Assembly: GCA_964406405.1 (NCBI GenBank)
Contig: CAYORN010000002.1
Coordinates: 64,161 to 128,160 of the forward strand
Origin: an uncultured Alphaproteobacteria bacterium
GTDB lineage: Bacteria > Electryoneota > RPQS01
DNA length: 64,000 nt
Direction of reading: 5' to 3'
A program made the translations under genes and the position numbers. Positions within the stretch are counted from its first letter, which is position 1; every line of letters starts with the position of its first letter. The notes under the pieces are model-generated. The model did no database searches. It was not told the DNA's origin and saw only the letters and a list, made by a program, of their open reading frames with translations. Positions 1,018 through 51,497 of the stretch are shown here, piece by piece.

Positions 1018-1047
1018 TTCCCATCCTTCATCCCTCATCCTTCATCC
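1018..1047. repeat. TTCATCC/GGATGAA heptad-array repeat (family H)
   Basis: cccatccttcatccctcatccttcatcc; same heptad array recurs at 11101, 11201, 12614, 25156, 26018, 50383, 56212. Confidence 0.7.
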
Positions 1048-1231
1048 TTTCCCGAAGAGAGGCATTCCCTTCGCCGATTCGGGTCTCTTATCCCCTAACG
1101 CTCGCTATGATCGTCGCTTAGCGACTTTCATCATTCCCTAAAGATGTCTTGCGATTGGCCGTGAACCGATGTAAGTTATAGGGGATGAACCCTTAGAGAA
1201 CCGGCCCTTTTGAATAGCCATAGGATATCTT

Positions 1232-10246: not shown

Positions 10247-10485
10247 ATATCCCCTGCTTTCAATCGCATGGGTATTCTCGTGATAACAAAGCCCCCCATG
10301 GGGTTAGCTTTTTGTCGGACATTACGAAGAGGCGTCAAATTGGATAACGGTGCTTAAACCAGCCATGACTTTCATGACTCTAAGTGGCAAGGCGGTTGCG
10401 GATTTTGTTTATTTCCCGTATCTTACCGCCGATCCTCTTGATCGCCAACCCTCTTTCGATCCCAATGTTAATAAGGAGTTTGAAA

Positions 10486-11094
10486 ATGCCTCGCCCGTAC
10501 CTATGGGTTGTGTTGCTGTTGTGCGCCATGCTGGCCGTCTCCGGCTGCTCGAGCAAAAAGAAAGTCTCCCGCATTGATGCCGCAGAAACCGTGGACCTGT
10601 CCGGCAACTGGAACGATACCGATAGCCGCCTGGTCGCCGAAGAGATGATCAGCGACGCCTTGTCGCGGCCGTGGCTCGCGAATCACTTGCGCGATGCCGG
10701 ACAGAACCCGGCGGTGATTGTCGGCGCGATTCGCAATTTCTCCGATGAACACATCGCGACCGGCACCTTCGTCGGTGATATCGAGCGCGCGTTTGTCAAT
10801 TCCGGCAATGTGCGCGTCGTCGCCAAGAAGGAGGAGCGCGAAGGCGTGCGCGATGAGCGCCAGGATCAGCAAGCTAACGCTTCAATCGAAACCGTGAAGG
10901 AGTTCGGTCAGGAACTCGGTGCGGATTACATGCTGATCGGCGAAATCAACAAGATCACGGATCAGGAAGGCCGCGAGAAGATCGCCTTCTATCAGGTGGA
11001 TCTCACGCTGACTCACATGCAATCGAACGAGAAGGTGTGGATCGGACAGAAAAAGCTCAAGAAGTACATCGCGCGCAAAGCCTATAAGCCGTAA
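10486..11094 (+). CDS. lpoB: lipoprotein, penicillin-binding-protein activator LpoB-like
   Basis: start at MPRPYLWVV with AAGGAG RBS; lipobox LAVSGC; from memory aligns with E. coli LpoB C-domain (VIVGAIRNFSDEHIATGTF / FVNSGNVRVVA / LGADYMLIGEI / YQVDLTLTHMQSNEKVWIG). Confidence 0.6.
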   Translation: MPRPYLWVVLLLCAMLAVSGCSSKKKVSRIDAAETVDLSGNWNDTDSRLVAEEMISDALSRPWLANHLRDAGQNPAVIVGAIRNFSDEHIATGTFVGDIERAFVNSGNVRVVAKKEEREGVRDERQDQQANASIETVKEFGQELGADYMLIGEINKITDQEGREKIAFYQVDLTLTHMQSNEKVWIGQKKLKKYIARKAYKP

Positions 11095-11100
11095 CGGAAA

Positions 11101-11230
11101 GGATGAAGGCGGAAGGATGAAGGATGAACCGGAAACATTAGAGTCACCTTCGTCATTCATTTCAATTACCCTGTCATCGAGCACCTTTATGCTGAAGAAA
11201 TTCATCCTTCATCCCTCATCCTTCATCCTT
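11101..11230. repeat. inverted pair of GGATGAA heptad arrays (MITE-like, about 130 nt)
   Basis: left arm ggatgaaggcggaaggatgaaggatgaa (11101-11128); right arm ttcatccttcatccctcatccttcatcc (11201-11230) is its reverse complement; about 70-nt spacer contains the start codon of the next gene. Confidence 0.7.
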
Positions 11231-12604
11231 CTCTTCCTCCTGCTGGGCTGCGCGGGGCCGCGAACTACGCTCATGCAGAAGGTGCGGAACGAGCTGTTCG
11301 CCAATCGCACGCAGGCGGCGTACGAGACTTACAAGAAGAAGGTCGGCGAGACCGAGCGCGTAGATGAACTTTTGAATCTCGGCCTGCTCGCCTATGAAGC
11401 CGGGGATTATGCCGCCTGCCAAACGGCGCTCGCGCGAGCAGATGAACTCGCGGAAGAGCGGCAGACAAAATCGCTTTCCCGCGAAGCGGCGGGCGTGGCC
11501 GTGTCGGATCGCGTGCGCGCGTATCAGGGAACGGTGTTCGACAAGGCCATGATCCACTACTACCGCGCGTTGGCGTTTCTCGCTCAGGATCAATTGAATG
11601 AAGCGGCCATAGAAGGCCGCCGTGTGGCGAGTTACTTTGAAGTGAACTCCCGCGAAAGCAAGCACACGTACAAGGACGACGCCTTTCTCCAATGGTTCAA
11701 CGGCGCGTGCTATGAACACGCAGGACAAACCAATGATGCGTGGATCTCGTATAGGCGTGCGCGAGATCTCTACGGGGATTATTATGGATTGCAAGAGCCG
11801 CAATTTCTCTGCGGAGTGACGCACGCCGCGGCGCGAGCGGTGGGAGAAACGGGTGACACGCTCGATTGTCCCGATGCAGCTTTGAATCCGAACTACGGGC
11901 GTGTCGTGGTGATTTGCGAAGCGGGGCTGGCGCCCCCGATCCGCGAGGAGAATATCGTCTTGCCGATCCTGGAGACGGTGCCTTCAAACTTCGAGAACGA
12001 CGACGAGCGCGATCATTACTACTACGATCTCTACGAGCACAATCACTATGACGCCGGCTATCAGGGCTACGACGAGACGCGGCTGAAGTATCTCTTGCGG
12101 CTCGCGCTGCCGATCTATTCCTCGACGGACAACGGATCTCGCGTTGGGTATGTGAGCGTGCGCGGCGGCGATTCGCTTTGTCAGGAAGCCGAGTTGAGTG
12201 AGGATGTCGGCGCGATTTTGCGGCAGGATTTGAAAGACCGCTATCCGGCCATCGTGGCGCGGGCGATTACACGGGCGATTATCAAGTACAGCGCGACGGA
12301 AGTTGCGCGCGAACTCGGCAAAGAGAAAGACAAAGACGGTAAGCGCAAGGCCGGGCTGCTGAGTGACGTGTTGGGCACAATCGTCAACGCCGCCGGTGCG
12401 GCATCGGAAGCGGCGGACACGCGCTCGTGGGAGACGCTGCCCGACAAAATTTTCGTCGCCGACTTTCCATTACCGCCGGGCAATCACACGCTGCGTGCCG
12501 TGTATGAAGACGATGGCGGGCAGCTCATCTACCGCCATGACTTCGGCGCGGTGGATGTGAAGCCGGGGGAGATTGTGTTCCTCCGGGCGAGATGCATGGA
12601 GTGA
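11189..12604 (+). CDS. lipoprotein with TPR-like region, unknown function
   Basis: start MLKKFILHPSSFILLFLLLGCAG (lipobox LLGC); part of the signal peptide is encoded by the right heptad arm; co-directional and 95 nt downstream of the lpoB-like gene. Confidence 0.55.
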   Translation: MLKKFILHPSSFILLFLLLGCAGPRTTLMQKVRNELFANRTQAAYETYKKKVGETERVDELLNLGLLAYEAGDYAACQTALARADELAEERQTKSLSREAAGVAVSDRVRAYQGTVFDKAMIHYYRALAFLAQDQLNEAAIEGRRVASYFEVNSRESKHTYKDDAFLQWFNGACYEHAGQTNDAWISYRRARDLYGDYYGLQEPQFLCGVTHAAARAVGETGDTLDCPDAALNPNYGRVVVICEAGLAPPIREENIVLPILETVPSNFENDDERDHYYYDLYEHNHYDAGYQGYDETRLKYLLRLALPIYSSTDNGSRVGYVSVRGGDSLCQEAELSEDVGAILRQDLKDRYPAIVARAITRAIIKYSATEVARELGKEKDKDGKRKAGLLSDVLGTIVNAAGAASEAADTRSWETLPDKIFVADFPLPPGNHTLRAVYEDDGGQLIYRHDFGAVDVKPGEIVFLRARCME

Positions 12605-12613
12605 GCAAAGAAA

Positions 12614-12694
12614 GGATGAAGGATGAAGCAGAAGAGGGTCGGCTGCTTGATAACTGTGCTCGATACGCTTGAGATTCGCAGCCGACACCGCAAT
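12614..12694. repeat. heptad repeat fused to palindromic element G (GGTCGGCTGC...GCAGCCGACACCGCAA)
   Basis: aaaggatgaaggatgaagcaga then gggtcggctgcttga...gcagccgacaccgcaa; second copy of element G at 20781..20840. Confidence 0.6.
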
Positions 12695-19157: not shown

Positions 19158-19224
19158 GAAACGTGGCGCAAATTTGTCGCACACGAACTTGAAAAGATTG
19201 CTGCCCCCGACACACATCAACCTC

Positions 19225-19256
19225 GCCCCCCCTTACCCCCCCGTAAACGGAGGGGA
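19225..19256. repeat. poly-C hairpin element P, intergenic copy
   Basis: gcccccccttacccccccgtaaacggagggg; close match to the lpxB copy gcccccccttgcccccccgcaggcggagggg at 25117. Confidence 0.7.
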
Positions 19257-22243: not shown

Positions 22244-23848
22244 ATGGCTACGCTACATGAGTTCGTGAAAAACAGCCCGATGCTCGCCTATATTGAGAAG
22301 CGCCGGATGCAGGTATCAAAAGTCGCGTCACCCGAGACTCGAAAACATCTCGGTCAGTTTCTTACACCTGCGCCCATCGCTCACTTCATGGCCTCACTTT
22401 TCACATGCAGGTCAAAGCACGTTTTCTTGCTTGACGCAGGGGCTGGCATCGGATCGCTAACGGCAGCATTTGTTGACCATGTTCTTGCCTTGAGACAGCC
22501 CCCGGAATGCGTGTCGGTAGTCATGTGGGAAGTAGACCCGGAAATGCTCGCGCATCTCTCGAATGTGGTAAGACGTTGTCATGATGAATGTCACAAGATT
22601 GGGATCAAGTTCACGGCCGTCATTATTCCGGAAGATTTTACCGAATCCGGTGCAGAGATAATCTTAGACCGTTTATTGGGGAAGCGCACCTATGCCTTCA
22701 ACTGTGCAATTCTAAACCCGCCCTACCGCAAGATTCAGACAAACTCTCCAGAGCGGTTGGCCCTCCGAAAAGTTGGACTGGAAACCAGCAATTTGTACGC
22801 GGGCTTCGTGGGTCTGGCCATCAAACTGCTGAATCCTGGTGGACAGCTTGTCGCAATCACACCGCGAAGTTTCTGCAACGGCCCATACTTTAGGCCTTTT
22901 AGAGAACTGCTTCTGCGGGAGATGCGATTTCGACTCATACACACATTCGAGCGAAGGGATCGAGCTTTCGTCGGCGATGGTGTCCTCCAAGAGAACATTA
23001 TCTTTCATGCCGTCAAGAATACGCGTACCGAAAAGTGGGTTACTATTTCTTACAGTCATGGAGCTGAAGACGCGACGTTGTCTTCCCGAAAGGTGCAGCA
23101 TGATGCCGTGGTATCGTTATCTGACCCAGAGTTGATCGTGCATGTTCCACACAGCAAGTATGACCAGGCCGCACGTGAGAAGATCGACCTGGAAAAGATG
23201 ACTCTCGTTGATTTGGGCATTAGTGTTTCGACGGGCAGGGTGGTGGATTTTAGAGCGCGGGAATTTCTCCGCATGCAGCCGGGCAGTGACACAGCGCCGC
23301 TGATATACCCGCTGCACTTTGAAAGCGGTTTTGTCACCTGGCCAAGATTATCTGCGAAGAGGCCGAATGCCATTGAGGTTAACGACACTACGCGACATAT
23401 GTTGGTGCCCAAGGGGTATTATGTGCTCGTGAAGCGCTTCACTTCCAAAGAGGAACGCCGCCGGATTGTGGCGGTAGTGCTTGACCCTAATCGCATTGCG
23501 GCCCCTGAATTTGCTTTCGAGAACCACATCAATTTCTATCACGCAAACGGACACGGTTTGCCCGAAGCGTTAGCGAAGGGACTTGCGGCATACTTGAATA
23601 CAACGACCGTCGACCGGTATTTCCGGCAATTCAGCGGGCATACTCAGGTTAATGCATCCGATTTACGAAAGCTGACTTATCCGGATCGCGCGGCACTGGA
23701 AGCGATTGGCTCTCAATTAGGTCCAGCGTTTCTCTTTCAGGAAGAACTGGACACACTCGTAGACGAGGAACTCGCATCGTGGCGAAACAAGCAACAAAGC
23801 AGCCAGCCGAAATTCAAAGCCGCATCAAAGAGGCTCTCACTGTTCTGA
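22244..23848 (+). CDS. type II N6-adenine DNA methyltransferase (PstI/BsuBI-like gamma-class)
   Basis: motif I FLLDAGAGIGSLTAAF; motif IV NPPY (AILNPPYRK); 534 aa, close to M.PstI/M.BsuBI size; visibly lower G+C than neighbours. Confidence 0.75.
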   Translation: MATLHEFVKNSPMLAYIEKRRMQVSKVASPETRKHLGQFLTPAPIAHFMASLFTCRSKHVFLLDAGAGIGSLTAAFVDHVLALRQPPECVSVVMWEVDPEMLAHLSNVVRRCHDECHKIGIKFTAVIIPEDFTESGAEIILDRLLGKRTYAFNCAILNPPYRKIQTNSPERLALRKVGLETSNLYAGFVGLAIKLLNPGGQLVAITPRSFCNGPYFRPFRELLLREMRFRLIHTFERRDRAFVGDGVLQENIIFHAVKNTRTEKWVTISYSHGAEDATLSSRKVQHDAVVSLSDPELIVHVPHSKYDQAAREKIDLEKMTLVDLGISVSTGRVVDFRAREFLRMQPGSDTAPLIYPLHFESGFVTWPRLSAKRPNAIEVNDTTRHMLVPKGYYVLVKRFTSKEERRRIVAVVLDPNRIAAPEFAFENHINFYHANGHGLPEALAKGLAAYLNTTTVDRYFRQFSGHTQVNASDLRKLTYPDRAALEAIGSQLGPAFLFQEELDTLVDEELASWRNKQQSSQPKFKAASKRLSLF

Positions 23849-24765
23849 AGGCTATTGGTATGCCCAGAGAGCAGATCAATGAGCGATCCGCGCTGACCTT
23901 GCTTTCACTCGTGGGGCTAAGGCCTCAAGTACGTTGGAAGAGTGCACGAACGGAGTCTCGCGGTGTAACGCAGATGATGGAGTTCATGGCGACCGAATAT
24001 CGGAAACGCTATGCACCTAACACGCGCGAAACCGTCAGGCGATATGCGTTGCATCAATTCGTTCAGGCTGGAATTGCCCTAAAGAATGCCGACGATCCGT
24101 TGCGCCCCACAAACAGTCCGGACACAGTTTATTGTGGAGCACCTCCGCTGCTTGAACTCTTGAAAACTTTTGGAACTACTAAGTGGGAATCAACTCTCCG
24201 CAAGTTCCTTATTGCGCAGCCCGCTCTGAGCCAGAAATATGCCGCCGAACGAACGCTCCCGAGACTAAGAGTCAAGCTTCGAAAAGGACAGAGCATTGCG
24301 TTATCGCCGGGCGGTCAGAATGTACTCGTAAAGCGGATTGTTGAAGATTTCTGTCAGCTTTTTACTCCAGGTGCATCCGTTGTGTATGTTGGCGATACAA
24401 GCAAGAAATGGGCTTACTTTGATCAAGCACTGCTTTCGACTCTCGGCATTGACATAGAAAAGCATGGAAAAATGCCTGATGTCGTAGTGTATCAGGCAGA
24501 GAAGGGTTGGCTCGTGCTGATTGAGGCTATCACCAGCCATGGACCGGTAACTCCAAAACGGCAAAACGAACTCAAGGAGCTATTTGGGAGCACATTAGCA
24601 GGCTTGGTATTCGTCAGTGCGTTTCTGAGCAAGAAATCCCTGTTGAAATACTTGCAGGAAATTGCCTGGGAGACAGAGGTTTGGGTCGCAGAGCATCCTA
24701 CTCACATCATTCACTTCAACGGTGAAAGATTTCTGGGACCCTACGAATCAACGACCAGTGTCTGA
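23779..24765 (+). CDS. putative type II restriction endonuclease (BsuBI/PstI-like); start uncertain (alt. ATG 23860)
   Basis: 328 aa immediately after the MTase; N-terminal KEALTVLKAIGMPREQINERSALTLLSL; PD-(D/E)xK-like MPDVVVYQAEKGWLVLIEAITSHGP; low G+C. Confidence 0.5.
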   Translation: MAKQATKQPAEIQSRIKEALTVLKAIGMPREQINERSALTLLSLVGLRPQVRWKSARTESRGVTQMMEFMATEYRKRYAPNTRETVRRYALHQFVQAGIALKNADDPLRPTNSPDTVYCGAPPLLELLKTFGTTKWESTLRKFLIAQPALSQKYAAERTLPRLRVKLRKGQSIALSPGGQNVLVKRIVEDFCQLFTPGASVVYVGDTSKKWAYFDQALLSTLGIDIEKHGKMPDVVVYQAEKGWLVLIEAITSHGPVTPKRQNELKELFGSTLAGLVFVSAFLSKKSLLKYLQEIAWETEVWVAEHPTHIIHFNGERFLGPYESTTSV

Positions 24766-26038
24766 GCATCTCATCTTCATTTCCGCCGGCGAGGCCTCCG
24801 GTGACACCCATGCGGCGGGAGTAGTTCGTGAGTTGAAATTGCGTTATCCGGATGCGACGTTCTTTGGCATTGGCGGGGATCAGATGCTGGAAGCGGGAGT
24901 CGAACTGATCGAGCACGCGCGGCGGATGTCGTTCATGGGATTCGCCGAAGTTGTGCGGCATCTGCCGTTCATCTACGCCACGCGCACGCGCGTGCTAAAA
25001 GAGATCGTCGTGCGGCGGCCCGATCTGATTTTGCTCGTTGACTATCCGGGGTTTCATTTTTCGCTGCTCAGAAGTTTGAAGCGGATGAAGATCATTGGAA
25101 AGCCGAGTCAAAGTTCGCCCCCCCTTGCCCCCCCGCAGGCGGAGGGGAAATCTGCTTCATCCTTCATCCTTCATCCTTCATCCTTTCCGAGAGTTCTCTA
25201 CTACATTCCGCCGCAGGTGTGGGCGTGGAAAGCGGGACGGGCGAAGGAACTGGCGAAGCTGGCGGATCGGATTGCGGTGATCTTTCCGTTTGAGGTAGAG
25301 ATCTTCAATAAGGTGACCCCCCCTGAATCCCCCCCGCTAAAGCAGGGGGGAAAGGCGGTGTTTGTCGGGCATCCGCTGTTAGATGAAGTGGGAGACATTC
25401 CGCCGCGGGGGCAGTTTCTCAAGAGCATCGGGCTGGAGCCGGATGACCGGGTGATCGGGTTGTTTCCGGGTTCGCGCAAGCAGGAGATCCGGCGCCATCT
25501 GCCGGTGTTAGTGGAGACGGTGCGCCTGCTGCGGCGGTTTCATCCGGAATTGAAATTCATTCTGGCCGAAGCGCCGGGCGTGCCGCTGGATCTGTACACG
25601 CGGTTGCTGCGCGACATTGCGGGAATCGTGCGCGTGGGCGGCGTGTCGCACGAAGTGCTCGCGCATTGCAACGCGTCCTTCGTGAAGTCCGGCAGCAGCA
25701 CCGTGGAAGCGGCGTACTTCGGCAATCCGTTCGTGGTGTTCTACAAGGTGTCGGCGCCGAGCTATGCGATCGGCAAGCGCATCGTGAAGGTGCCGTACAT
25801 TGCCATGGCGAATATCCTCGCGGGCGAGATGGTGGTGAAGGAGCTGATTCAGGATCAGGCCACGCCGGAAAATCTCTTCGCCGCCATGCTGCCGCTGATC
25901 AATTTGCCGGAGAGCGTGGAAGCCTGCCGCGCGGGACTCAGGAAAGTTCGCGCGCAGTTGGGCGAACCGGGCGCGGCAAAGCGAGTGGCGGAATTGGCGG
26001 GGGAACTGGTGGAAGAAAGGATGAAGGATGAAGGATGA
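24758..26038 (+). CDS. lpxB: lipid-A-disaccharide synthase LpxB carrying two in-frame repeat-element insertions
   Basis: GTG start (GTGTCTGA overlap with REase stop); LIFISAGEASGD, VSPxVWAW-like YIPPQVWAWK, FPFE; 30-aa and 14-aa extra segments coincide with repeat elements. Confidence 0.85.
   Translation: MSEHLIFISAGEASGDTHAAGVVRELKLRYPDATFFGIGGDQMLEAGVELIEHARRMSFMGFAEVVRHLPFIYATRTRVLKEIVVRRPDLILLVDYPGFHFSLLRSLKRMKIIGKPSQSSPPLAPPQAEGKSASSFILHPSSFPRVLYYIPPQVWAWKAGRAKELAKLADRIAVIFPFEVEIFNKVTPPESPPLKQGGKAVFVGHPLLDEVGDIPPRGQFLKSIGLEPDDRVIGLFPGSRKQEIRRHLPVLVETVRLLRRFHPELKFILAEAPGVPLDLYTRLLRDIAGIVRVGGVSHEVLAHCNASFVKSGSSTVEAAYFGNPFVVFYKVSAPSYAIGKRIVKVPYIAMANILAGEMVVKELIQDQATPENLFAAMLPLINLPESVEACRAGLRKVRAQLGEPGAAKRVAELAGELVEERMKDEG
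25117..25179. repeat. composite element: poly-C hairpin P + TTCATCC heptads, in-frame within lpxB
   Basis: gcccccccttgcccccccgcaggcggaggggaaatctgcttcatccttcatccttcatcc translated as SPPLAPPQAEGKSASSFILHPSSF. Confidence 0.75.
25317..25350. repeat. poly-C hairpin element P variant, in-frame within lpxB
   Basis: ccccccctgaatcccccccgctaaagcagggggg translated as TPPESPPLKQGG. Confidence 0.7.
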
Positions 26039-26050
26039 GGGAGGAAGGAA
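26018..26050. repeat. GGATGAA heptad array at the lpxB 3' end
   Basis: aaggatgaaggatgaaggatgagggaggaagg; gives the LpxB ORF a ...ERMKDEG tail. Confidence 0.65.
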
Positions 26051-26145
26051 TACAAACTCCAAACCTCAAACTACAAACTTCAAACCTCGTTCAAGCGATA
26101 CTCTTGTTTTCAATTTTCGATTTTCAATTTTCAGTTTGAGTTTTT

Positions 26146-26595
26146 GTGATCGGAGGAACTATGCAACGCATCATCGTAACCCTCTTCTGTTTTCTGATTG
26201 TGCTGTCATCCGCCTACGCTTGCATGACGGCGAAGCCCAACAGCGCGCTTGTGCTGGAGCAAGTGCCGGAGGTGGACCTCACCGGACCGGTGTACGACAT
26301 GCCGGCTCCGCCGATCACCTTCAACTCCGTCCTTTCCGGAGTGGTATCCGCTGTCACGTACGTTACCCACCACACGCTCCGGATCGCGGCGGACGTGCCG
26401 CACTACGCCTGCAAAACTCCACGGCTCGCACTCGGCAGCTATCACCACGCGACTACGGTGGCGAATAACGGCGCGCAGCAAGCGAAACAAGCCGCAACCC
26501 AAGGGATGAACGGATTTTCCACCGTCACGAGTATTCTGCTACGAATCGCTTACTCTTCTTTCTCGGCTCTCGTTTCGGGCATCTTGCGCTCCTGA
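26146..26595 (+). CDS. hypothetical small secreted/membrane protein (uncertain)
   Basis: 149-aa ORF with hydrophobic N-terminus MQRIIVTLFCFLIVLSSAYAC; no homology recognised; its 3' part overlaps the likely true N-terminus of the next gene in another frame. Confidence 0.3.
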   Translation: MIGGTMQRIIVTLFCFLIVLSSAYACMTAKPNSALVLEQVPEVDLTGPVYDMPAPPITFNSVLSGVVSAVTYVTHHTLRIAADVPHYACKTPRLALGSYHHATTVANNGAQQAKQAATQGMNGFSTVTSILLRIAYSSFSALVSGILRS

Positions 26596-30322: not shown

Positions 30323-32812
30323 ATGTCGCGGATTGATCTGCACGTCCATAGCCGGTACTCGGATCGGCCCACGAACTTCTTCCTGAAGAAGATGAAGGCG
30401 CCGGAGAGTCTGACCGAGCCGGAGGCCGCCTATCGGCTGGCCAAGCGGCGCGGCATGGACTTTTTTACGCTGACCGATCCGGACACGCTGGAAGGGTGCT
30501 TGGAATTGTCCAGGCATCCCGATGTCTTCCCGTCGTGCGAAACGACGGTGGCGTTTCCCGATAACGATTGCAAGATCAAGCTGCTGCTCTATGGCCTGAA
30601 CGAAGCGCAGCTCAAGCATCTGCTTGCGTATCGCGGGAACATCTTTCAGGCGCGGAATTATCTGCTCGCGGAGAATATCTTTCATGCCGTCGCCTCGCCG
30701 CTGGAGCCCTTGAACGCGCGGCTGGGTGTGGATCACATCGAGAAGCTGCTGCTGCTGTTCGATCATTTCGAGACGCGCTCCGGAATGCGGCACCCGCGGA
30801 CAAACGAGTTCATCACGGCGCTCCTGGACAGCTTGACGCCGGAGTTTCTCTTTGATCTCGAGCGCAAGTGGCGGATTCAGCCGGCGAGCGAAAAGCCGTG
30901 GCAGAAGGGGTATCTCGGCGGCTCGAACGATTATTGCGGGCAATACATCGGCCTGACGTGGACCGATGTGCCCGGCGTGCGGACGACGGGAGAATTGCTG
31001 GACAGTTTGCGGCGGCGCAGCGGCACGCCGGGAGGGATTCACGGCAGCACGCTCGCCGCGGCGCACTCGATGTACCGCGTGGCGTTTCAGTTCTACCAAA
31101 AGAACTTGCGGCGGAAAAACGTCCGCGAGCCGGACCTGATTTCGCTCCTGCTCTCGCGAGTGCTGCAGCCGGAAGAAGCGCAGCGCCTGACCGTACGTCA
31201 AGCGGCGGCGATGACAATGGCGATGCTGCGGCGGCTGCTTCACCCGCGGCGCGGGCCGTCGTACATTGAGCGGCGGTTAATGCGTGAATTCATCCGGGCC
31301 TATAACCGCATTCCGGCGAGCGAACGTCTGCGCGATATTCCGCGCGACGATTTGGTGACGTATGACGAACGGCTGTACAGTCTTGTGGATCGCGTGATGG
31401 GGGAAGTGACGTACCGGCTGCTGGAGCGGGCAACACGGGAGTTCGAGCGCGGGCGTGTGGGAAATGCGCTCTCTCTGGGCGCGGCGATTCTGCCGGTGCA
31501 GGCGGTGCTGGGGCCCTATCTTTATTCCTTCAACCGGATGAACTCCGACCGGCCGCTGCTGGCAAAGTTGGAAGCACGCTTTTCTCCGGCGCTCGAATTG
31601 CCGCCGTTGCGCGCACCGCGAAAAAAGATCGCCTGGTTCTCGGACACGATTACGGACGTCAACGGCGTCTCGCTCACGCTGCACAAAATGGCCGAGGTAG
31701 CGGAAAAGCTGAACGCGGATCTGACGATTATTTCGTCGGTCACGCGGGACAAAGCGCCGCAGGGACCGAAGTTCTTGAATTTCGAGCCGGTGGGCGAGCT
31801 GCCGGTTCCCGATTATGAATTGCAGAAGCTCGCGGTGCCGCCGGGATTGCAGATCATTCGCTATCTCGAACAGGCAGGATTCACGGAATATGTGATCTCC
31901 ACGCCGGGGCCGGTGGGCATGATTGCGCTGCTCGCCGCGAAGATGCTGCATGTTCCGGTGCGGGCAATTTATCACAGCGATTTTCCGGAGCACATACGCC
32001 ACATCACCGGCGACGAGGGCTTGTATCAGGCCGCGTGGACGTTCATGCGCTGGTTCTACGGCAAGGCCGACGCCGTGTACTCGCCCAGCGCCTTCTATCG
32101 CGACCAGTTGATCGAGCACGGTTTCGATCCGACGCGAATGTTTATCTTTACGCGCGGAACGGATCTTGATTTCTTCAATCCCAAGCATCGCGACGACACG
32201 TTCTATCAGGCATGGGGGATCCGCGGCCGGGTGGTGTTTCTTTACACCGGACGAGTGTCGCGCGAGAAGAATCTTGACACGGTGCTGGATGCGTTTTGGG
32301 GCGATGACGAGTTGAAGGCGAAGGCCGCGCTGGTCATCATCGGCGACGGACCGTACGCCGGCGAGTTGAAAGAACGCTACAAGCATCCGGCGATTGCGTT
32401 TCCGGGATTTATGAAAGGCAAGAATCTCGCGCGGGCATATGCGTCGGCGGATGCGTTTGTCTTTCCCTCGACGACGGACACGTACGGCAATTCCGTCCTG
32501 GAAGCGCAGGCGTCCGGCTTGCCATCGCTGGTCTCGGACGAAGGCGGCCCGAAGGAGATTATTCTGCCGAATCAGAGCGGCTTCGTGCTGCCAGGGCATG
32601 ACGTGCCGGCGTGGCGCGCGGCGATGCGCGATTTGACAATGGGCACAGAGCTTCGCGCCCGCATGGCCTCGGCGGCGCGGGCACGAGCGGCGACAAGGGA
32701 CTGGACCACGGCGTTTCGGGAGTTTTGGGAGGTAGATCCGTACGGAAAAAGTTCAAACCCAAAATCCCAGATCCAAGATCCCAAATCCCAGTCGGAAGTA
32801 CCCCGGCCTTAG
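30323..32812 (+). CDS. fusion protein: N-terminal PHP-domain phosphoesterase + C-terminal GT4/GT1 glycosyltransferase
   Basis: IDLHVHSRYSD...FFTLTDPDT (PHP); C-terminal ...FLYTGRVSREKNLD...EAQASGLPSLVSDEGGPKEII (Glycos_transf_1); low-complexity tail from an A/C-rich repeat. Confidence 0.7.
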   Translation: MSRIDLHVHSRYSDRPTNFFLKKMKAPESLTEPEAAYRLAKRRGMDFFTLTDPDTLEGCLELSRHPDVFPSCETTVAFPDNDCKIKLLLYGLNEAQLKHLLAYRGNIFQARNYLLAENIFHAVASPLEPLNARLGVDHIEKLLLLFDHFETRSGMRHPRTNEFITALLDSLTPEFLFDLERKWRIQPASEKPWQKGYLGGSNDYCGQYIGLTWTDVPGVRTTGELLDSLRRRSGTPGGIHGSTLAAAHSMYRVAFQFYQKNLRRKNVREPDLISLLLSRVLQPEEAQRLTVRQAAAMTMAMLRRLLHPRRGPSYIERRLMREFIRAYNRIPASERLRDIPRDDLVTYDERLYSLVDRVMGEVTYRLLERATREFERGRVGNALSLGAAILPVQAVLGPYLYSFNRMNSDRPLLAKLEARFSPALELPPLRAPRKKIAWFSDTITDVNGVSLTLHKMAEVAEKLNADLTIISSVTRDKAPQGPKFLNFEPVGELPVPDYELQKLAVPPGLQIIRYLEQAGFTEYVISTPGPVGMIALLAAKMLHVPVRAIYHSDFPEHIRHITGDEGLYQAAWTFMRWFYGKADAVYSPSAFYRDQLIEHGFDPTRMFIFTRGTDLDFFNPKHRDDTFYQAWGIRGRVVFLYTGRVSREKNLDTVLDAFWGDDELKAKAALVIIGDGPYAGELKERYKHPAIAFPGFMKGKNLARAYASADAFVFPSTTDTYGNSVLEAQASGLPSLVSDEGGPKEIILPNQSGFVLPGHDVPAWRAAMRDLTMGTELRARMASAARARAATRDWTTAFREFWEVDPYGKSSNPKSQIQDPKSQSEVPRP

Positions 32813-32890
32813 GGTTGGTTTGTGCGTGGTCGTTTCGGCGGGTCACTTTGCTTGTTTCAGGTTTCAAGTTTCACATTTCAAATATTCTTT
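32745..32890. repeat. A/C-rich heptad array and complementary T/G-rich heptad array (inverted, about 60-nt spacer)
   Basis: aaaagttcaaacccaaaatcccagatccaagatcccaaatcccag ... gtttcaggtttcaagtttcacatttcaaatattc; similar pairs at 26040..26145 and 49480..49530. Confidence 0.55.
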
Positions 32891-37300: not shown

Positions 37301-37627
37301 GCAGAAGGAGTGAATCGTGCTGACCGGCATGGTGTCGAGTTCGAGCAGGGCGCGCCGGTACGATGCACGGTCCGGCGCGTTCTCTTGCGCGCGCGCTTCG
37401 AGTTGTTTCCGCAGCTTGATTTTCAGTTCGCCCGCGGCCTTTTCGGTGAAGGTGATCGCGACCACCTGCGCCAACGGCACTTGCCGCTCGCGAACAATGG
37501 TTAAGATGCGTTCCACCAGCAGCGTAGTTTTTCCGGTTCCCGCGGCGGCTTCGACGATGTAAGTCGTGCTCAGGTCGCTGGCGGCGAGCGTGCGCTCGTG
37601 TTGATCTACAATCGGGCGCTCGCTCAT
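34391..37627 (-). CDS. addA: ATP-dependent helicase/nuclease subunit A (AddA/RecB-like UvrD helicase + PD-(D/E)xK nuclease)
   Basis: Walker A AAAGTGKTT; UvrD motifs; C-terminal nuclease VIDLMFVE...IIVDFKTD; start ATG overlaps addB stop (ATGA). Confidence 0.85.
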   Translation of the reverse strand: MSERPIVDQHERTLAASDLSTTYIVEAAAGTGKTTLLVERILTIVRERQVPLAQVVAITFTEKAAGELKIKLRKQLEARAQENAPDRASYRRALLELDTMPVSTIHSFCRELIQERPVEAGVEPNFSVADQATAELLRAEVWEEWIAGEFSGECPAARPLLERGISALSSRGFSLRDLYEVLLNYREDLDALHVATLNDDALSKRFAAFREELRSELTALDACKNREDGLAKELLKIQEWLARGDTLDLMNAATWLEQKPELSKRSPGQQANWSSKEIQERAKLLRAEFETRADAVYAEFVSRWADNAVQWLKGAAEAYAQAKTLRGRLDFHDLLLLARNMLQTSRAARAFFKERFTFILVDEFQDTDPLQTEIVFFLAEQPDSFAGEWEDVELVPGKLFIVGDPKQSIYRFRRADLDLYGKVREKIEACGKCLHIRMNFRSVPDILHEVNDVFAAHMTGERNGRYEPEYVALEPYRDAVTSPQTVFLAPPDSWWDNKPNAKQQAQAEAACIAEYIREQVQQHGRTYRDIGILYSATTHLTELEHALRSREIPYQVAGGKKFIERSEVTALRTVIAALDNPFDESSVVGALRSPFFACSDEDLLVQRWDGDGFNYLRCDGALPHVEECLALLRELHRQKARRAPSETIADLFARAKGLQIYALKPHGDGRVANLLKLLDMARALENDAGSSFHALARRLAKLEDTRAAEDDSATAETGDNVVQLLTFHKAKGLEFPLVMLFRLGHVNNRPEGPLIARGTKALEFSARKGFATAGYLAASEDDHDREACEHMRLLYVAMTRAREQLVIPAYWCDATKGFYKLLRTRYTSLGQMPETGHTRFTVHDSSRYSLDVPPTEALKIELDMPENDPRVGASIAAKAGWEQQRRVAVEQLNRSRAFATPSRSSSLGISANGHGVNRDAAKFGSYVHRLLERVTLPDGANLGRICLSSAEEFGIRENRIQEGCDLVRAALKSDLFQRAYRAEALYREVPFADVQDGVLWEGVIDLMFVEQDQLIIVDFKTDAISTNELPDSAQHYAAQLHAYRRAMEKIAGKPVAELLLYYLRPNTTVAVPPLKVTV

Positions 37628-40600
37628 TCGGAACCTTCGCGCAAAACGCGCAACGCGTCGGTTTGCGGCAGCTCGTAATCCCACTTGTGCGTGAAGCGTC
37701 CGGTGCCGCACGCCGCTTTCGCCGCGCAGAACTGGCAGACATCATTGGGCGTGGGGAAGAACTGGCCATGACCGACGAGGCCGGACACCTCCTCTATAAG
37801 CCGGGTGATGCTGGCGCGGTTCTGCTCCCAGGACTCGCGCGAGATTTCTATCGTCTGCGCTTCCTCCGTGCCGAGGAAATAGTACGCAAACGCGCCCACA
37901 TCGAGACCGAGCGCGGCGGCCGCGAGACGGGCGACGTGCGGCTCCAGTCCTGCCGCCGTGTCGTGCTGTTTAGCGCGATTCTCGAATTTTGCTGTGGTGT
38001 AATCCACCAGCCGCACCGCGCCATCCACGCCGATGTCCACGCGATCAATCCTGCCATGCAGCCGCAGCGTGTAACCGTTGCCGATTGGCAAGGTAACCGG
38101 CTCACGGCGAGACAGCTCGGAATCGCCCTCGTCTAAGCCATAGGTCACGTTAAAGTGCGCCGGACGAAAGGAGGAGGCTGCATTCACTTCGCACGAGAAA
38201 AACGCTTGCAACCGTTGTTTGATCCGCTCCTTTTCAATGTCCCAGAGGAGCGGCAGCCCGGGCACAAACTTGCGCTCAAACTCGGCGAAGCTCTCGTCCG
38301 CCGTGGAGGCCAAGCGCGGCCAGGCGTCGGCCGTTAAGGGCCAGCGGTTCGCCCGGGTTTCGGCGCGATAAAAGTGCTCCAAAATGTCGTGGATCAGCAT
38401 GCCGCGCGCGCGCGGTTCGAGCGGCTGAAGCCAATGCGGTTCGGCGGTGGGTTCCAGTTCGAGCAAGTGCATCACAAAATATTGAAACGGGCAGTCGAGG
38501 TAGCGTTGGATGCGACGCGGCGAGAGTGACGGGATCCATACCTTCAGACGCTCGCGCAAGCTTTGCGATTCGATGCTGCCGTCGAAAGGCGTGAACTCGC
38601 GCGCGCGATACCGCATGTGTTCCGCGTGCACGCCACGCTGGAATGCGGGATCCGCGCAGAAGAGATAGGCGACGTTGTCCGCGCTTTTCGTATGCAGAGC
38701 CATGCCGAGGCGGGCGAGGTCATATTGAAACGGCGTAACGGCCTGATCGGGGCGCTTTCCTTGCAGGCGATTGAGCGCCACGCGCCGCGCTTGCGGACTG
38801 GTACGGACAAAGGACTCCAACGACTCATAGTCGGCGGCATTCCCCGTTGCCGCCTCGAGCGCGCGCAGCAGAAATGCCGAGGCCAGCCACTCGCGGCCTT
38901 CCACCGGATCGAGGCGCGAGTAAGTGAGCACGACGCGGCGGCGCGCGGAGTTCACCGCGGTACGAAAGAGAAAACGCTCGCGATGGCGCAGCCGCGAGCG
39001 CAGCGGAATGGCAATGTCCGGGTGGTGCAGAGCACGCTGCAATTGCAGGCGCTCGTCGTCGAGCAGCAGCGGGTCTTGCGCGGTGGGACGCGGGAACTCT
39101 TTCTCCACCACGCCGCAGAGAATCACATCATCGAACACGACGCCAAACGCATCGGAGATTCTCGCAATGGTCGGCTCATGGACCTCGAACTTGCCTTCGC
39201 GGTCGAGCGGCTGCGACAGCAACGATTCAATGAAAGAAGAAAACTCGGCGGCATCCGGCTTTAGTCCCAGAGCATCGAGCAATGCCGCGTGCGTGAGTTG
39301 CTCGCGGATCAACTCCGCCTCGCCGTTACTCTCCACGAACTCGACATAGAGTGCGGCGGTGCGCTCGCCGATCTCCCGCCATGTTTTCGCCTTGCGGACG
39401 GCCGTGATTCCGGCAAACAACCGCTCGATGTACTGCTGGAAAACATCCAGCGACGCCAACTGGCGTTGCAGCGGAGCGGCAGGATCATCCATCTCCCGTT
39501 CGCGGCGCGCGAGTTCTTCCTCAAGCTGATGACATAAGCGGGATAGGTTCTGCCGCCACGGCGTCTCGCCGGCGATGATCTGCGCCTTGAGCGTGAAGTG
39601 ATTCCACTCCGCGGCAGGGACTTCGGGCAGTTCCGGAGGGAAATAGGCTGGGCGGCGGAGCGGCGACGAGAGCAGGAATTCCATCACGTCCGTACGACGG
39701 AACACGCCGTCGAAGAGCCTTACCAGCCAGCGCAGCGCGCGGCCCGAGGGCGTGTCGCCCAGCCTGCGGCACTCATGGATGTAACTCGTGATGCCGGCGC
39801 GCGACCACTCCTCACGCACGAGCGGGAGATAACTTGCGCTCTCGCGCATCAGGACGCCAATTGTTTCTCCCCTCCGTTCACGGGGGGGACTAAGGGGGGG
39901 CGAATCTGGTCCAATGCCGAACGACTTCGGATGCGATGCCGACCCGTACACCACCTCCCTCAGTATTTCCTCCACTTCACTGTCCCGGCCCGCCGCCGAA
40001 ATCACCCGAAAACTCTCATCTCCCCCTACTTCAGTAGGGGGATTAAGGGGGTCATCTTCAAGTGTCTCTTCAAACACTCCCAGTTGCACCCGCGCGAGCG
40101 CGTTGTCCTGCCCGGCGCGCTCGTCCGGCTCCAGCAGCTCGGCTTCGAAACCCTGTTCGAGATACCATTGGTAGAGCGGTTCGCTCCAGACATAGGCATC
40201 GGACGCACGAAAGGGCAAATATGCGATTGTTTCACATCCCGCCATCGCCCGCAGGATCAACTGCCGCTTCATGGCACTCAGATCATCCAGGCCATAAACG
40301 ACCAGACCCGCTTTCACGTTGCCTGCGGCTTGCCCTGCTAACTCGATCAGCATCGCGTGATCGGCGAGCTTGTGCCTTCGCATCAGTCCGTCCAACGCAC
40401 GCCAGATCGCGGCTATCTCTTTTAGTTTTTGGCGCGTGAGATCGCTGACCTGCGGACGATCGGACGCCGGCAAGATGTCTTCGGCAGTGAGCCCGACGGC
40501 TTTGAGTTCGTGAATCGTTGTCCACGCGGCGCGCTGGAAGCCCTTGCGAGGGGCCATGCGATGGAAATAGCGCAGTGAACACATTTCGACTGCGCGCTTC

Positions 40601-49759: not shown

Positions 49760-51343
49760 CTACAACTCCCTCAACTCGGAGTGTGGATAATAGTGTTCGA
49801 GAATACTCTCCACACTCCGCCCCGCTTTTGCCATGGCCGCCGCGCCTAATTGGCAGAGGCCGACGCCGTGGCCCCACCCGCCGCCCGTCAAGGTGATCGT
49901 GTCGCCGTGGATGTCGAAGACGAAGAACGACGAGGGCAGGTGCGATGACGAGAGTGCGCGTCGGATGTTGAGTTCGCCATAGATCACGAAGGAGGCTGAT
50001 CTGCCGACAATTTCCAGGACGAGAATACGCCCTGAGGACCCGCGGCGCTTGACGTGCAGCGATTTGATCGCACCGACTTTTGTGCCGGTTTTGCTCGCGA
50101 TCAATTCGCCCAATTCCGCGCACGAATAGGTGCGTTGCCAGCGGAAGAGCGGGTCTGTGTCCCACGGCTCGGGATAGGGAAACAGCTTGTCGTTGCACCA
50201 CGCCGGCGGATGCGAGAGCACGAACGCGCGCGCATGCTCCTCGTCCGTCAAATCGAGCACGGGGAACTCGCCGCACGCGCGTACCGCGAAATACGCCGGC
50301 CCTTCGTCACCCCACGCTTCTTCATAAAGTTCGCTCACGCCGCCGCAGGACTTCGCATACCTCGCGTCTACGACGCGGGGAAAGGATGAAGGATGAAGGA
50401 TGAAGGATGAAGCAGACCCCCCTTTTGTCCCCCCACTAAGGTAGGGGGAGACTAAGACTTTTCCGGCGGAATCACGAATCGGAGCCACAACTGCGTTGGC
50501 TTCACGATACGTACCTTGATAACACTGGCAGTGATCGTCGTTGCAGAGATCGAAGCCGTCGGCGCGGTGATGGCGGCCCGCCGTGGCGAGCACCGTGGAA
50601 CGCGCGGCAATCGCCTGCGCCTGCGAGAAGGCCGGCGGCAAATCGGAACGCATCTCGCTGCCGACCGCGCTCTCAAGGTACATTTCGAGCGGCAGAATAT
50701 TGACCGCCGTGAGATCGTGCCCCTGCGGCTGAAAGAGTTTCAACGAACCGCGATATTCGAGCTGCTCCTTGTGCTCCCAATGAAAGCCGCGGCCGATCGG
50801 CACGTCGTAGAGCCAGAACACCGCAACGTCGTTCAGCGGCCGCGTGCGCACCTCGAGCACTTTCGCGGAAAAATCGCCGAGCGTAAATTCGAAGTACTCG
50901 GCAGGCTTGGCTTCATTCAGCTTGACGACGGTGAAGCCGAGTACGTTCAGCTCGTGGCGCGCACGCAGCACCTCCATCACGTTGGCAGCGTGCTCGGGCG
51001 AATTGACGCGCACGGTCGGCCACCAGACGCGGTTGTCGAGCGTGCCGTTGGGCGTTTCCCATTGCCGCCCGGCTTCGAGCATCAAGAGATCCTCGTTGGC
51101 CGCGAGATCGCCAACGAAGGAAAGCGTGCGCTCGGCATGTTCACGCGAGAGCGATTCGGCCAAACGCAAACCATAGCTCTCGTTGGGTTCGCTGGTCACC
51201 GCGTGAGCTTCGAAATATCCGGCAATCTGGTCGAATTTCAAACTGCGGCAGCAATCCGTGATGCAGATCACTTCGTGATCGCAGATCAGTTCGCCGCGGA
51301 TGTGCGGCTCTTCCCAGAGCAGGCCGATGGAAACGGAAAGCAT
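49760..51343 (-). CDS. SpoIID/LytB-domain protein (amidase-enhancer-like) with in-frame repeat insertion
   Basis: LPLEMYLESAVGSEM...AQAIAARSTVL...HHRADGFDLCNDDHCQCYQG (SpoIID domain); ...ARYAKSCGGVSE; start taken at MLSVSIG (51343) because upstream in-frame codons are repeat-derived. Confidence 0.7.
   Translation of the reverse strand: MLSVSIGLLWEEPHIRGELICDHEVICITDCCRSLKFDQIAGYFEAHAVTSEPNESYGLRLAESLSREHAERTLSFVGDLAANEDLLMLEAGRQWETPNGTLDNRVWWPTVRVNSPEHAANVMEVLRARHELNVLGFTVVKLNEAKPAEYFEFTLGDFSAKVLEVRTRPLNDVAVFWLYDVPIGRGFHWEHKEQLEYRGSLKLFQPQGHDLTAVNILPLEMYLESAVGSEMRSDLPPAFSQAQAIAARSTVLATAGRHHRADGFDLCNDDHCQCYQGTYREANAVVAPIRDSAGKVLVSPYLSGGTKGGSASSFILHPSSFPRVVDARYAKSCGGVSELYEEAWGDEGPAYFAVRACGEFPVLDLTDEEHARAFVLSHPPAWCNDKLFPYPEPWDTDPLFRWQRTYSCAELGELIASKTGTKVGAIKSLHVKRRGSSGRILVLEIVGRSASFVIYGELNIRRALSSSHLPSSFFVFDIHGDTITLTGGGWGHGVGLCQLGAAAMAKAGRSVESILEHYYPHSELREL
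50383..50449. repeat. composite GGATGAA heptads + poly-C hairpin P, in-frame within the spoIID-like gene
   Basis: ggatgaaggatgaaggatgaaggatgaagcagaccccccttttgtccccccactaaggtaggggg read on minus strand as SPYLSGGTKGGSASSFILHPSSFP. Confidence 0.75.
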
Positions 51344-51387
51344 AGAGAAAATTGAAAAATGAAAATCGAAAATTGTCGTCTTTTTGT

Positions 51388-51497
51388 TTGTCATCCTTGA
51401 ACGAAGCGCGTCTGCGCGCGTAGTGAAGGATCTCTCCGGGCAACAATCTGAAGCAGAGAGATCCTTCAGCCCGAAGACGGGCTTCAAGGATGACAAG
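51388..51497. repeat. inverted pair of REP-like E elements flanking a 23-nt spacer
   Basis: ttgtcatccttgaacgaagcgcgtctgcgcgcgtagtgaaggatctc ... gagatccttcagcccgaagacgggcttcaaggatgacaag; preceded by A-rich heptads gaaaaattgaaaaatgaaaatcgaaaattg. Confidence 0.65.

Follow-up and report, generated by a model that had tools for sequence, protein, structure and literature searches.

In-frame copies of small modular repeats in the lpxB gene of an uncultured bacterium

How does the gene of an essential enzyme come to carry two stretches of DNA that recur in unrelated genes and outside genes nearby? The question is raised by lpxB, the gene of lipid-A-disaccharide synthase, in a 64-kb stretch of contig CAYORN010000002.1 from an uncultured bacterium (hereafter the window, i.e. 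the whole stretch of DNA that was analysed). A previous inspection of the letters, here called the sequence-only reading, had proposed that this gene contains two in-frame extra segments made of a poly-C hairpin element and TTCATCC heptads, and had compared them with the palindromic elements of Rickettsia. The results presented here indicate that the segments are very probably true repeat insertions in a functional lpxB. As to their nature, we consider it rather likely that the gene was colonised by tiny, modular, dispersed repeats, and that these persist as selfish passengers and not through selection for a structure or a peptide.

The lpxB gene and its two expanded loops

The lpxB region is a single long open reading frame (ORF; 24662-26038, plus strand) and the product translated from its GTG codon at 24758 is 100% identical to a public 426-aa protein, P0001, encoded on a 968-kb contig. 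The product matches the Pfam family PF02684 over its full length (E=5.2e-86; bit score 289, cut-off 22.6) and E. coli LpxB (PDB 5W8S) with E=2.7e-42. The HMMER alignment to the E. coli enzyme splits at the first insert, where query residues 110-142 stand opposite one E. coli residue, and shows a 10-residue gap at the second. The two extra segments were thereby confirmed in their positions, peptides and DNA motifs; it is only their sizes that had been put too high. Instead of 30 aa (90 nt) and 14 aa (42 nt), the net gain at site 1 is ~+28 aa relative to the modal loop, or ~+25 aa relative to the closest empty allele, and at site 2 it is +10 aa (30 nt), the terminal GGK being aligned with a native Gly-Gly-x of the host loop. 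The coordinates of these and the other features are collected in Table 1.

The ratio of nonsynonymous to synonymous substitution rates (dN/dS) was calculated over 342 shared codons and was 0.10-0.14 in all pairs compared. The pair formed by the window and L001, both of which carry inserts, falls in the same range at a synonymous divergence (dS) of 0.69. Residues D93, S237/R238 and E315 are invariant columns among 33 aligned LpxB proteins and match D98, S200/R201 and E281 of the E. coli enzyme, i.e. the catalytic base (D98) and nucleotide-binding residues (PMC5785501). Moreover, the synteny of lpxB is conserved among relatives. In other words, lpxB of the window is intact and under strong purifying selection. 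As the sequence-only reading had implied, the gene is not a pseudogene, because dN/dS is low even where both of the alleles compared carry inserts, and the catalytic residues are in place; nor are the inserts a product of misassembly, because they are present in independent assemblies (L001, L024 and L021-L023) from different samples.

The AlphaFold model of the protein has a mean predicted local distance difference test score (pLDDT) of 90 and a predicted template modelling score (pTM) of 0.87. It shows the GT-B fold, with 5W8S as the top Foldseek match (E=2.5e-25); the large root-mean-square deviation from this structure is no surprise, as in the crystal the enzyme forms a C-terminally swapped dimer (PMC5785501). 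The deepest dips of the model are found at the inserts, where the mean pLDDT of 10-residue blocks is 53-68 (residues 111-140) and ~72 (residues 181-200). In the model, residues 108-142 form a coil between a helix (95-107) and a strand (143-147), and residues 185-196 form a coil between a helix (175-184) and a strand (197-200). The catalytic residues and the hydrophobic membrane patch (E. coli residues 66-76) are clear of both inserts, as read from the alignment to E. coli LpxB. Both inserts, being coils and the lowest-confidence stretches of an otherwise confident model, are thus predicted to lie in surface loops, a location also considered in the sequence-only reading, to be unstructured and to be tolerated by the enzyme. 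Judging from the preserved frame and stop codon they are most probably translated, and SASSFILHPSSFPR and VTPPESPPLK are candidate tryptic peptides of the insert-bearing protein. The C-terminal peptide ERMKDEG, which is itself encoded by a heptad array, is the same in P0002 and P0003.

Table 1. Positions of lpxB, its inserts and the related repeats in the window
Feature	Positions	Strand	Basis
lpxB coding sequence (lipid-A-disaccharide synthase, 426 aa, GTG start)	24758..26038	+	Pfam, PDB match, identical protein P0001, dN/dS, model
Expanded loop, site 1 (33 residues, KIIGKPSQSSPPLAPPQAEGKSASSFILHPSSF; modal length in relatives 5)	25088..25186	+	loop lengths, empty allele of L018, coil with low pLDDT
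Poly-C hairpin, site 1: G-C7-TTG-C7-G-CAGG-C-GGAGGGG-AAA, read PPLAPPQAEGK	25117..25150	+	
Heptad module, site 1: TCTGC(TTCATCC)4TTTCC, read SASSFILHPSSF	25151..25188	+	
Poly-C hairpin, site 2: A-C7-TGAAT-C7-GC-TAAA-GC-A-G6, read TPPESPPLKQGG, net +10 aa	25316..25350	+	
Reverse heptad array, (AAGGATG)n on the plus strand; encodes the LpxB C-terminus ...ERMKDEG and its TGA stop	26017..26049	-	
Poly-C hairpin outside confirmed coding region; ends 7 nt upstream of GTG 19263 (Polysacc_synt ORF)	19224..19256	+	
Poly-C hairpin in addB-like gene (37624-40905, -), C-rich strand sense, read SPPLSPPRERRGE	39869..39901	-	
Second, shorter poly-C copy (C5 runs) in addB-like gene, read DPLNPPTEVGG	40022..40051	-	
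Composite insert in SpoIID-like gene (49760-51496, -): poly-C with G-rich strand sense (SPYLSGGTKGG), then TCTGC(TTCATCC)4TTTCC (SASSFILHPSSF)	50379..50448	-	
TTCATCC heptad array in N-terminal region of ORF 11117-12604 (MLKKFILHPSSFILLFLLLGC)	11201..11231	+	
Reverse heptad array (AAGGATG)n, right after the stop of ORF 10384-11094	11099..11128	-	
Reverse heptad array with TCTGC end, right after the stop of ORF 11117-12604	12612..12628	-	
TTCATCC-type heptad array, spacer between ORFs 117-935 and 1232-2647	1022..1049	+	

Filled and empty alleles among relatives

Loop lengths were compared among the 33 aligned LpxB proteins, and the DNA was aligned for the five closest alleles. The loop at site 2 has 8 residues in 28 of the 33 proteins, including the Gemmatimonadota, Zixibacteria and Kapabacteria outgroups, and 18 residues in the window. 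The loop at site 1 has 5 residues in 16 of the 33 proteins and 2 in the outgroups, as against 33 in the window. These outgroups and E. coli have short loops at both sites (2 and 8 residues), and none of them has homologous sequence there, which agrees with the sequence-only reading.

Presence/absence variation, likewise considered in the sequence-only reading, is evident among the close relatives. In L018, which encodes P0004 (~87% identity in the aligned residues), both sites are cleanly empty. In L021 (P0003), site 1 contains heptads alone and site 2 contains a poly-C copy, and L001 has both poly-C copies in common with the window, flanked by different heptads. In L024 (P0005) the poly-C element is present at site 1, with 1 difference in 38 aligned positions to the copy of the window, and site 2 is occupied by an unrelated element ending in the same TCTGC(TTCATCC)4. 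Taken together, the aligned sequences support the view that the segments are insertions and not ancestral loops. The neighbour-joining tree of the non-insert columns has the topology ((P0004,((P0005,P0006),window)),(P0003,P0002)), so that in the closest clade elements must have been gained, lost or replaced at least three times. Across three clades, the filled and empty states of site 1 form a patchwork. In the relatives, the signature PPxxPPxxGG(E/K) occurs at 5 LpxB positions: besides the two sites, these are the C-terminus, a further internal loop (the third) and an extension of the N-terminus. In part, the N-terminal occurrences probably stem from gene calls that were extended over a copy lying upstream.

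Two of the alleles show further peculiarities. The element at site 2 of L024 (~1290-1400) is a third repeat type, which encodes ...QRKHEILQPADGSAFGEISSHGLQDDK... and is fused to TCTGC(TTCATCC)4; its peptide is similar to other peptides of repeat origin in metagenomic proteins. In P0006, which comes from a 1969-bp ENA contig, the VLYYIPPQVWAW...FPFE block between the insertion sites is missing and the repeat regions are joined directly (alignment columns ~180-320). This is either a repeat-repeat recombination or deletion that gave a dead allele, or a chimeric assembly.

The repeat family of the window

Motif counts far above those of shuffled sequences confirmed that the extra DNA consists of a poly-C hairpin and TTCATCC heptads. 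The heptad dimer TTCATCCTTCATCC (at most 1 mismatch) was found 15 times in the window versus 0.05 expected, and the double C-run pattern CCCCCCNNNNNCCCCCC gave 14 matches at 5 places versus 0.26 expected; a looser poly-C pattern adds the copy at 40022-40051 as a sixth. The poly-C module is ~30-35 nt long and consists of C7, a linker of 3-5 nt, a second C7 and a short stem-loop closed by a G run. The heptad arrays have defined ends, e.g. TCTGC(TTCATCC)nTTTCC. The modules are found singly or joined in the order heptad array, poly-C hairpin, heptad array, and the poly-C core together with the heptad module comes to 72 nt. The heptad units differ between genomes at the same lpxB site (CCAAATC, CTCGAAA, CTCATCG and TTCATCC).

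Five of the six poly-C copies are inside long ORFs, and four were confirmed as insertions by alignments of homologues. The intergenic copy that the sequence-only reading had placed at 19225 is present, with the added detail that it lies immediately before a GTG codon, and the addB-like gene turned out to contain two copies rather than the one reported. The copy at 39869 contributes a segment of ~15-17 aa that has no counterpart in 9 of 9 aligned homologues, and at the 40022 site the relatives have heptad-encoded peptides (SSFILHPSS and SLIPHPSSL). The SpoIID-like gene had also been named correctly as a host: its poly-C part (50417-50448, minus strand) is accompanied by a heptad module, and the insert of 21 aa (SPYLSGGTKGGSASSFILHPSSF) stands between invariant blocks, is absent in distant homologues and is variable in close ones. 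In the ~30 kb that are syntenic with the P0002 genome, indels of at least 5 aa are lacking in most genes, and two of the few real indels are these repeats. As a separate observation, a palindromic 18-nt tandem repeat (CGTGATCGCAGATCACTT, 2.1 copies) is found at 51257-51293, in the N-terminal part of the SpoIID-like gene or upstream of its true start.

lpxB and the SpoIID-like gene have the same 38-nt heptad module without a single difference, and the copy at 19224-19256 shares an identical 24-nt hairpin core, CCCCCCCGTAAACGGAGGGGAATC, with the site-1 copy in lpxB of L001. The segments are copies of dispersed elements and not a chance similarity of Pro and Gly codons. It is the DNA, and not the peptide, that is the repeated unit, since the same DNA is read in different frames and on different strands. 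In the window the first nucleotide of the site-1 element falls on codon position 1, in L001 on codon position 2 (read TPPTPPVNGGE), the addB-like copies use codon positions 1 and 3, and the SpoIID-like copy is read on the opposite strand. Each coding copy uses an open frame, and the other frames of the same copy often contain stops.

The orientation of the heptads is equally conspicuous. The (TTCATCC)n strand is stop-free in all frames, whereas its complement (AAGGATG)n has TGA in every frame. All arrays within ORFs have the TTCATCC sense, and the reverse sense is seen only at or just after the 3' ends of genes (11099, 12612, 26017), which is the pattern that a selection filter on indiscriminate insertion would give. 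Note that in the reverse arrays (11099-11128, 12612-12628, 26017-26049) an AAGGA motif resembling a Shine-Dalgarno sequence is located 6 nt before ATG in every frame; from its sequence, (AAGGATG)n could be a stop-and-restart cassette at gene ends.

In the window, 11 or more separate arrays of period 7 were counted, built from no fewer than 6 unit types (TTCATCC, CAAACCT, TTTTCAA, CAAATCC, GTTTCAA and GAAAATT). The TTCATCC array within 11189-11260 of ORF 11117-12604 seems to supply the hydrophobic core of a putative signal peptide of lipoprotein type, with a candidate lipobox. Arrays of (CAAATCC)n, (GTTTCAA)n and (GAAAATT)n are situated at gene boundaries (32754-32790, 32854-32881 and 51347-51375), and one of these encodes the C-terminal tail of an 829-aa ORF (30323-32812).

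The generic C7-N-C7-hairpin motif was found in metagenomes at no fewer than 120 loci (L025-L144) with GC contents of 40-80% and many subfamilies. Among the matches listed, the subfamilies include CCCCCCCAACCCCCCCGACATCGGGGGGG and CCCCCCCTAGCCCCCCCGCAAGCGGGGGGG, one locus (L073) has a 959-aa ORF with three matches, and the motif is frequent at contig ends and often present as overlapping inverted forms. The position at contig ends suggests that such motifs break assemblies. No Rfam family scored above threshold in the whole window, and the lone match of a permissive Rfam search of 25000-26200, to a long non-coding RNA, was rejected as spurious (17 bits versus a cut-off of 60). A literature search on the element, on KSB1 repeats and on small dispersed repeats found no description, which is not proof of novelty.

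Possible origins of the inserts and known parallels

If the repeats are selfish passengers, copies would have been gained and lost at many places of the genome in a KSB1/Calditrichota-like lineage, regardless of coding status. In an essential gene, the survivors would be those copies that fell into a permissive surface loop with a total length that is a multiple of 3 nt, in a stop-free orientation and frame. The outcome would be a Pro/Gly/Ser-rich, predicted unstructured extension of the loop, e.g. PPxxPPxxGG(E/K) or FILHPSS, in which the peptide is a by-product and the DNA is the repeated, conserved unit. The lineage is named here only after the labels of the relatives' metagenome-assembled genomes (KSB1, Calditrichaeota or unclassified bacterium), and among these labels some, such as 'uncultured Alphaproteobacteria', are plainly not to be trusted.

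We infer from these patterns that the repeats are selfish and mobile, and a number of observations weigh against this. Neither a target-site duplication nor a terminal inverted repeat nor a site preference is evident in the alignments of filled and empty alleles, in which the divergence (dS ~0.5) is such that short duplications could be erased. No transposase, REP-associated tyrosine transposase (RAYT; REP, repetitive extragenic palindromic) or other mobilising gene was found in the 64-kb window, which is part of a contig of at least 968 kb. A possible mobiliser is located next to lpxB in L018 (1052-1715), namely a 169-aa Y1_Tnp gene (IS200/RAYT-like) that encodes an HLH (HUH-type) motif and has inverted repeats of its own on either side (GCGGGGTCTATGGGTCC... 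/ ...GGACCTATAGACCCCGC and GAGACCCCGCCGAAAT / ATTTCGGCGGGGTCTC). By its sequence this is a REP/RAYT-like unit unrelated to the poly-C element, and it was rejected as the mobiliser: its flanking repeats (GCGGGGTCT...) differ from the poly-C element, and a tblastn search with Y1_Tnp gave no homologue in the 64-kb window. The coding fraction of five copies in six comes from a single 64-kb window, and the translation of the inserts is deduced from the kept frame and the absence of stops. Elsewhere the generic motif is often intergenic: among the matches listed in the metagenome scan, 42% of the interior copies are within a long open frame versus the 59% baseline of the ORF-spanning heuristic, figures that pool unrelated organisms and give no coding fraction for the lineage of the window. 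Finally, orthologous copies are far better conserved than neutral DNA when all positions are taken as free (P ~2e-4 and 7e-4), which fits constraint or homogenisation rather than pure junk.

The last point leads to the first alternative, i.e. that the elements are functional nucleic-acid structures under selection, such as a G-quadruplex (G4) or a G.U hairpin, that might have roles in transcription pausing, mRNA stability, replication or recombination, with the protein insert as the price. The C7 and G runs are kept between orthologous copies, whereas the four-fold sites of the gene differ by 25-35%. In 5 of 5 copies examined a C.A mismatch of the C-rich strand becomes a G.U wobble on the G-rich strand, which folds more stably than the C-rich one. 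Quadruplex-aware folding with RNA parameters predicts a three-tetrad G4 from G7-N3-5-G7 (G-rich strand GGGGGGGCAAGGGGGGG) in 3 of the 5 copies, with energies of -26.8 vs -19.6, -29.3 vs -16.4 and -20.2 vs -20.0 kcal/mol. Three copies are situated ~7-40 nt upstream of start codons, and the generic architecture is widespread in metagenomes. However, a site-specific function is not called for, given that the same sites lack the element in close relatives, and the copies occur in both orientations with respect to transcription. The hairpin described in the sequence-only reading is real, with a predicted fold on either strand, but its stability does not surpass that of dinucleotide shuffles of the same composition (z -0.5 to -2), and this applies to the G-rich strand as well; the z-scores carry no information, since good folding is to be expected of any sequence that has C and G runs. 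The G4 values are thermodynamic predictions, and the conservation could equally reflect recent insertion or gene conversion among copies. On balance we consider selection for structure unlikely.

A local, de novo origin is a second and quite improbable explanation, in which the heptads arose by replication slippage and the hairpins by fold-back or template switching on native G-rich Gly codons, as independent expansions at indel-prone loops. The variation of heptad units between genomes at the same site is what fast local evolution of arrays would produce, and in two cases a G arm coincides with host codons: the 3' G run of site 2 with the native Gly-Gly codons, and the G arm in addB with host-like G-E-R codons. 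On the other hand, the identical 38-nt and 24-nt stretches include non-repetitive junctions (TCTGC..., ...TTTCC, the GTAAAC loop and the GGGGAATC tail) at unlinked loci and in different genomes, and the same composite order is found in different genes. An independent origin of such strings is very unlikely.

According to a third explanation, the Pro/Gly-rich and FILHPSS peptides are themselves selected modules, such as flexible linkers, membrane-interacting segments or interaction motifs, recruited into LpxB and into further proteins of the envelope or of DNA repair. Two lineages that are dS ~0.7 apart have kept the inserts, the C-sense reading prevails in the coding copies of the clade and gives a recurrent PPxxPPxxGG, and the excess conservation of orthologous copies vanishes if the peptide is constrained, i.e. 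with third codon positions alone free the conservation is as expected. Since the conservation test does not discriminate by itself, the question of DNA versus peptide is carried by the differences in frame: the same DNA, read in different frames and once on the opposite strand, gives unrelated peptides. Moreover, copies are found outside genes, the host proteins have no function in common, no structure is predicted for the segments, and the nearest relative lacks both inserts while its LpxB is equally constrained. Selection for the peptides is therefore very doubtful in our view. Lastly, an assembly error in repeat-rich DNA or a pseudogene with a backup lpxB is hardly credible: homopolymer runs and short tandem repeats are error-prone in sequencing, generic copies are often at contig ends, P0006 looks chimeric or deleted between the two insert sites and the inspection for a second lpxB covered the 64 kb of the window only, but the same inserts stand at the same sites in independent assemblies of different samples, and the intact ORF, conserved catalytic residues, low dN/dS and conserved synteny all speak for a living gene.

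The repeats of the window have known counterparts. The Rickettsia palindromic elements (RPEs) are dispersed palindromic repeats that are inserted in-frame in unrelated housekeeping genes, in a manner compatible with the fold, and the host proteins are apparently functional (summarised in PMC10969869). Like RPEs, the inserts of the window keep the reading frame and are found in unrelated genes of an essential or housekeeping kind (lpxB, addB-like, SpoIID-like), where they occupy loops. Unlike RPEs, which are ~100-150 bp long, encode a family-specific conserved peptide and belong to Rickettsia, they have a core of ~30-35 nt made of homopolymer runs plus heptads, are read in several frames and both orientations, and are found in a KSB1/Calditrichota-like lineage. 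The parallel drawn in the sequence-only reading thus holds for in-frame insertion that leaves the genes undestroyed and not for size or a family-specific peptide; we treat it as a functional analogy that implies no relatedness.

The MITEs of bacteria (miniature transposable elements with inverted repeats; ERIC, BOX and Nezha-type) are small, non-autonomous and sometimes located in ORFs, to which they add peptide segments (PMC10969869). The elements of the window resemble them in lying within ORFs, to which they would add peptide segments, and differ in being several-fold smaller; terminal inverted repeats or target-site duplications were not recognisable between filled and empty alleles, at a divergence (dS ~0.5) that may have erased short duplications. 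With REP sequences and their paired form, REPINs, i.e. imperfect palindromes of 20-40 nt in many copies, they share the palindromic build in many copies (six poly-C copies in 64 kb) and, among the metagenome matches listed, the frequent overlapping inverted forms of the generic hairpin. REPs are, however, extragenic by definition, whereas five of the six copies of the window are inside ORFs, and REPINs go with a RAYT that has the same repeats; in the 64-kb window no RAYT was found, and the Y1 gene of L018 has other repeats.

The heptads call to mind the short tandemly repeated repetitive (STRR) sequences, which are tandemly repeated heptanucleotides in heterocystous cyanobacteria. In both cases 7-nt units form tandem arrays at many dispersed loci, mostly near gene boundaries, and one genome has several types of unit. 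The unit sequences differ from those of STRRs, and the lineage of the window is not cyanobacterial by database labels. In contrast to STRRs, the arrays of the window have non-repeat ends (TCTGC..., ...TTTCC), are joined to a hairpin and lie within the reading frames of essential genes.

In-frame colonisation of housekeeping genes by selfish repeats is textbook knowledge for Rickettsia only. The present case concerns a free-living uncultivated lineage of the FCB (Fibrobacteres-Chlorobi-Bacteroidetes) group and a far smaller, differently built element, which suggests that the phenomenon is more general. Very short repeats can reshape the surface loops of essential enzymes on short evolutionary timescales, and the recurrent use of a few LpxB loops provides a natural map of insertion-tolerant sites in an antibiotic-target enzyme. 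On the practical side, such repeats would lead to assembly breaks, to false N-terminal extensions in gene calls and to inflated protein diversity in metagenomic catalogues. A broader proposal, which we put forward tentatively and hold to be possible rather than likely, is that the C7-N-C7 hairpin and the heptads form a widespread, undescribed class of miniature repeats with conserved DNA or RNA capable of forming a G-quadruplex or hairpin, which in some lineages (e.g. KSB1-like) spreads into coding sequence as freely as into spacers, without known REP, MITE or RPE machinery. If so, it would be a major source of loop-length variation in essential proteins, and its importance would be considerably greater if the G-quadruplex or hairpin proved functional or a new mobilisation mechanism were found.

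The surroundings of lpxB are variable too. Upstream of the gene there is a type II restriction-modification pair (22244-24765), consisting of an Eco57I-family methylase (22244-23848) and a BsuBI/PstI-family endonuclease (23779-24765) whose stop overlaps the lpxB start. In relatives, the slot between a GFO_IDH_MocA gene and lpxB is occupied by the Y1 transposase (L018) or by two hypothetical genes (L021), and it looks like a variable integration hotspot. On the other side, nearly all of the spacer after lpxB (26017-26137) consists of three serial heptad arrays, (AAGGATG)n, (CAAACCT)n and (TTTTCAA)n. In L018 and L021, lpxB is followed by a 325-aa gene of the SpoIIE/PP2C family, which is absent in the window and L024, so that the loss of this gene coincides with heptad-rich DNA after lpxB.

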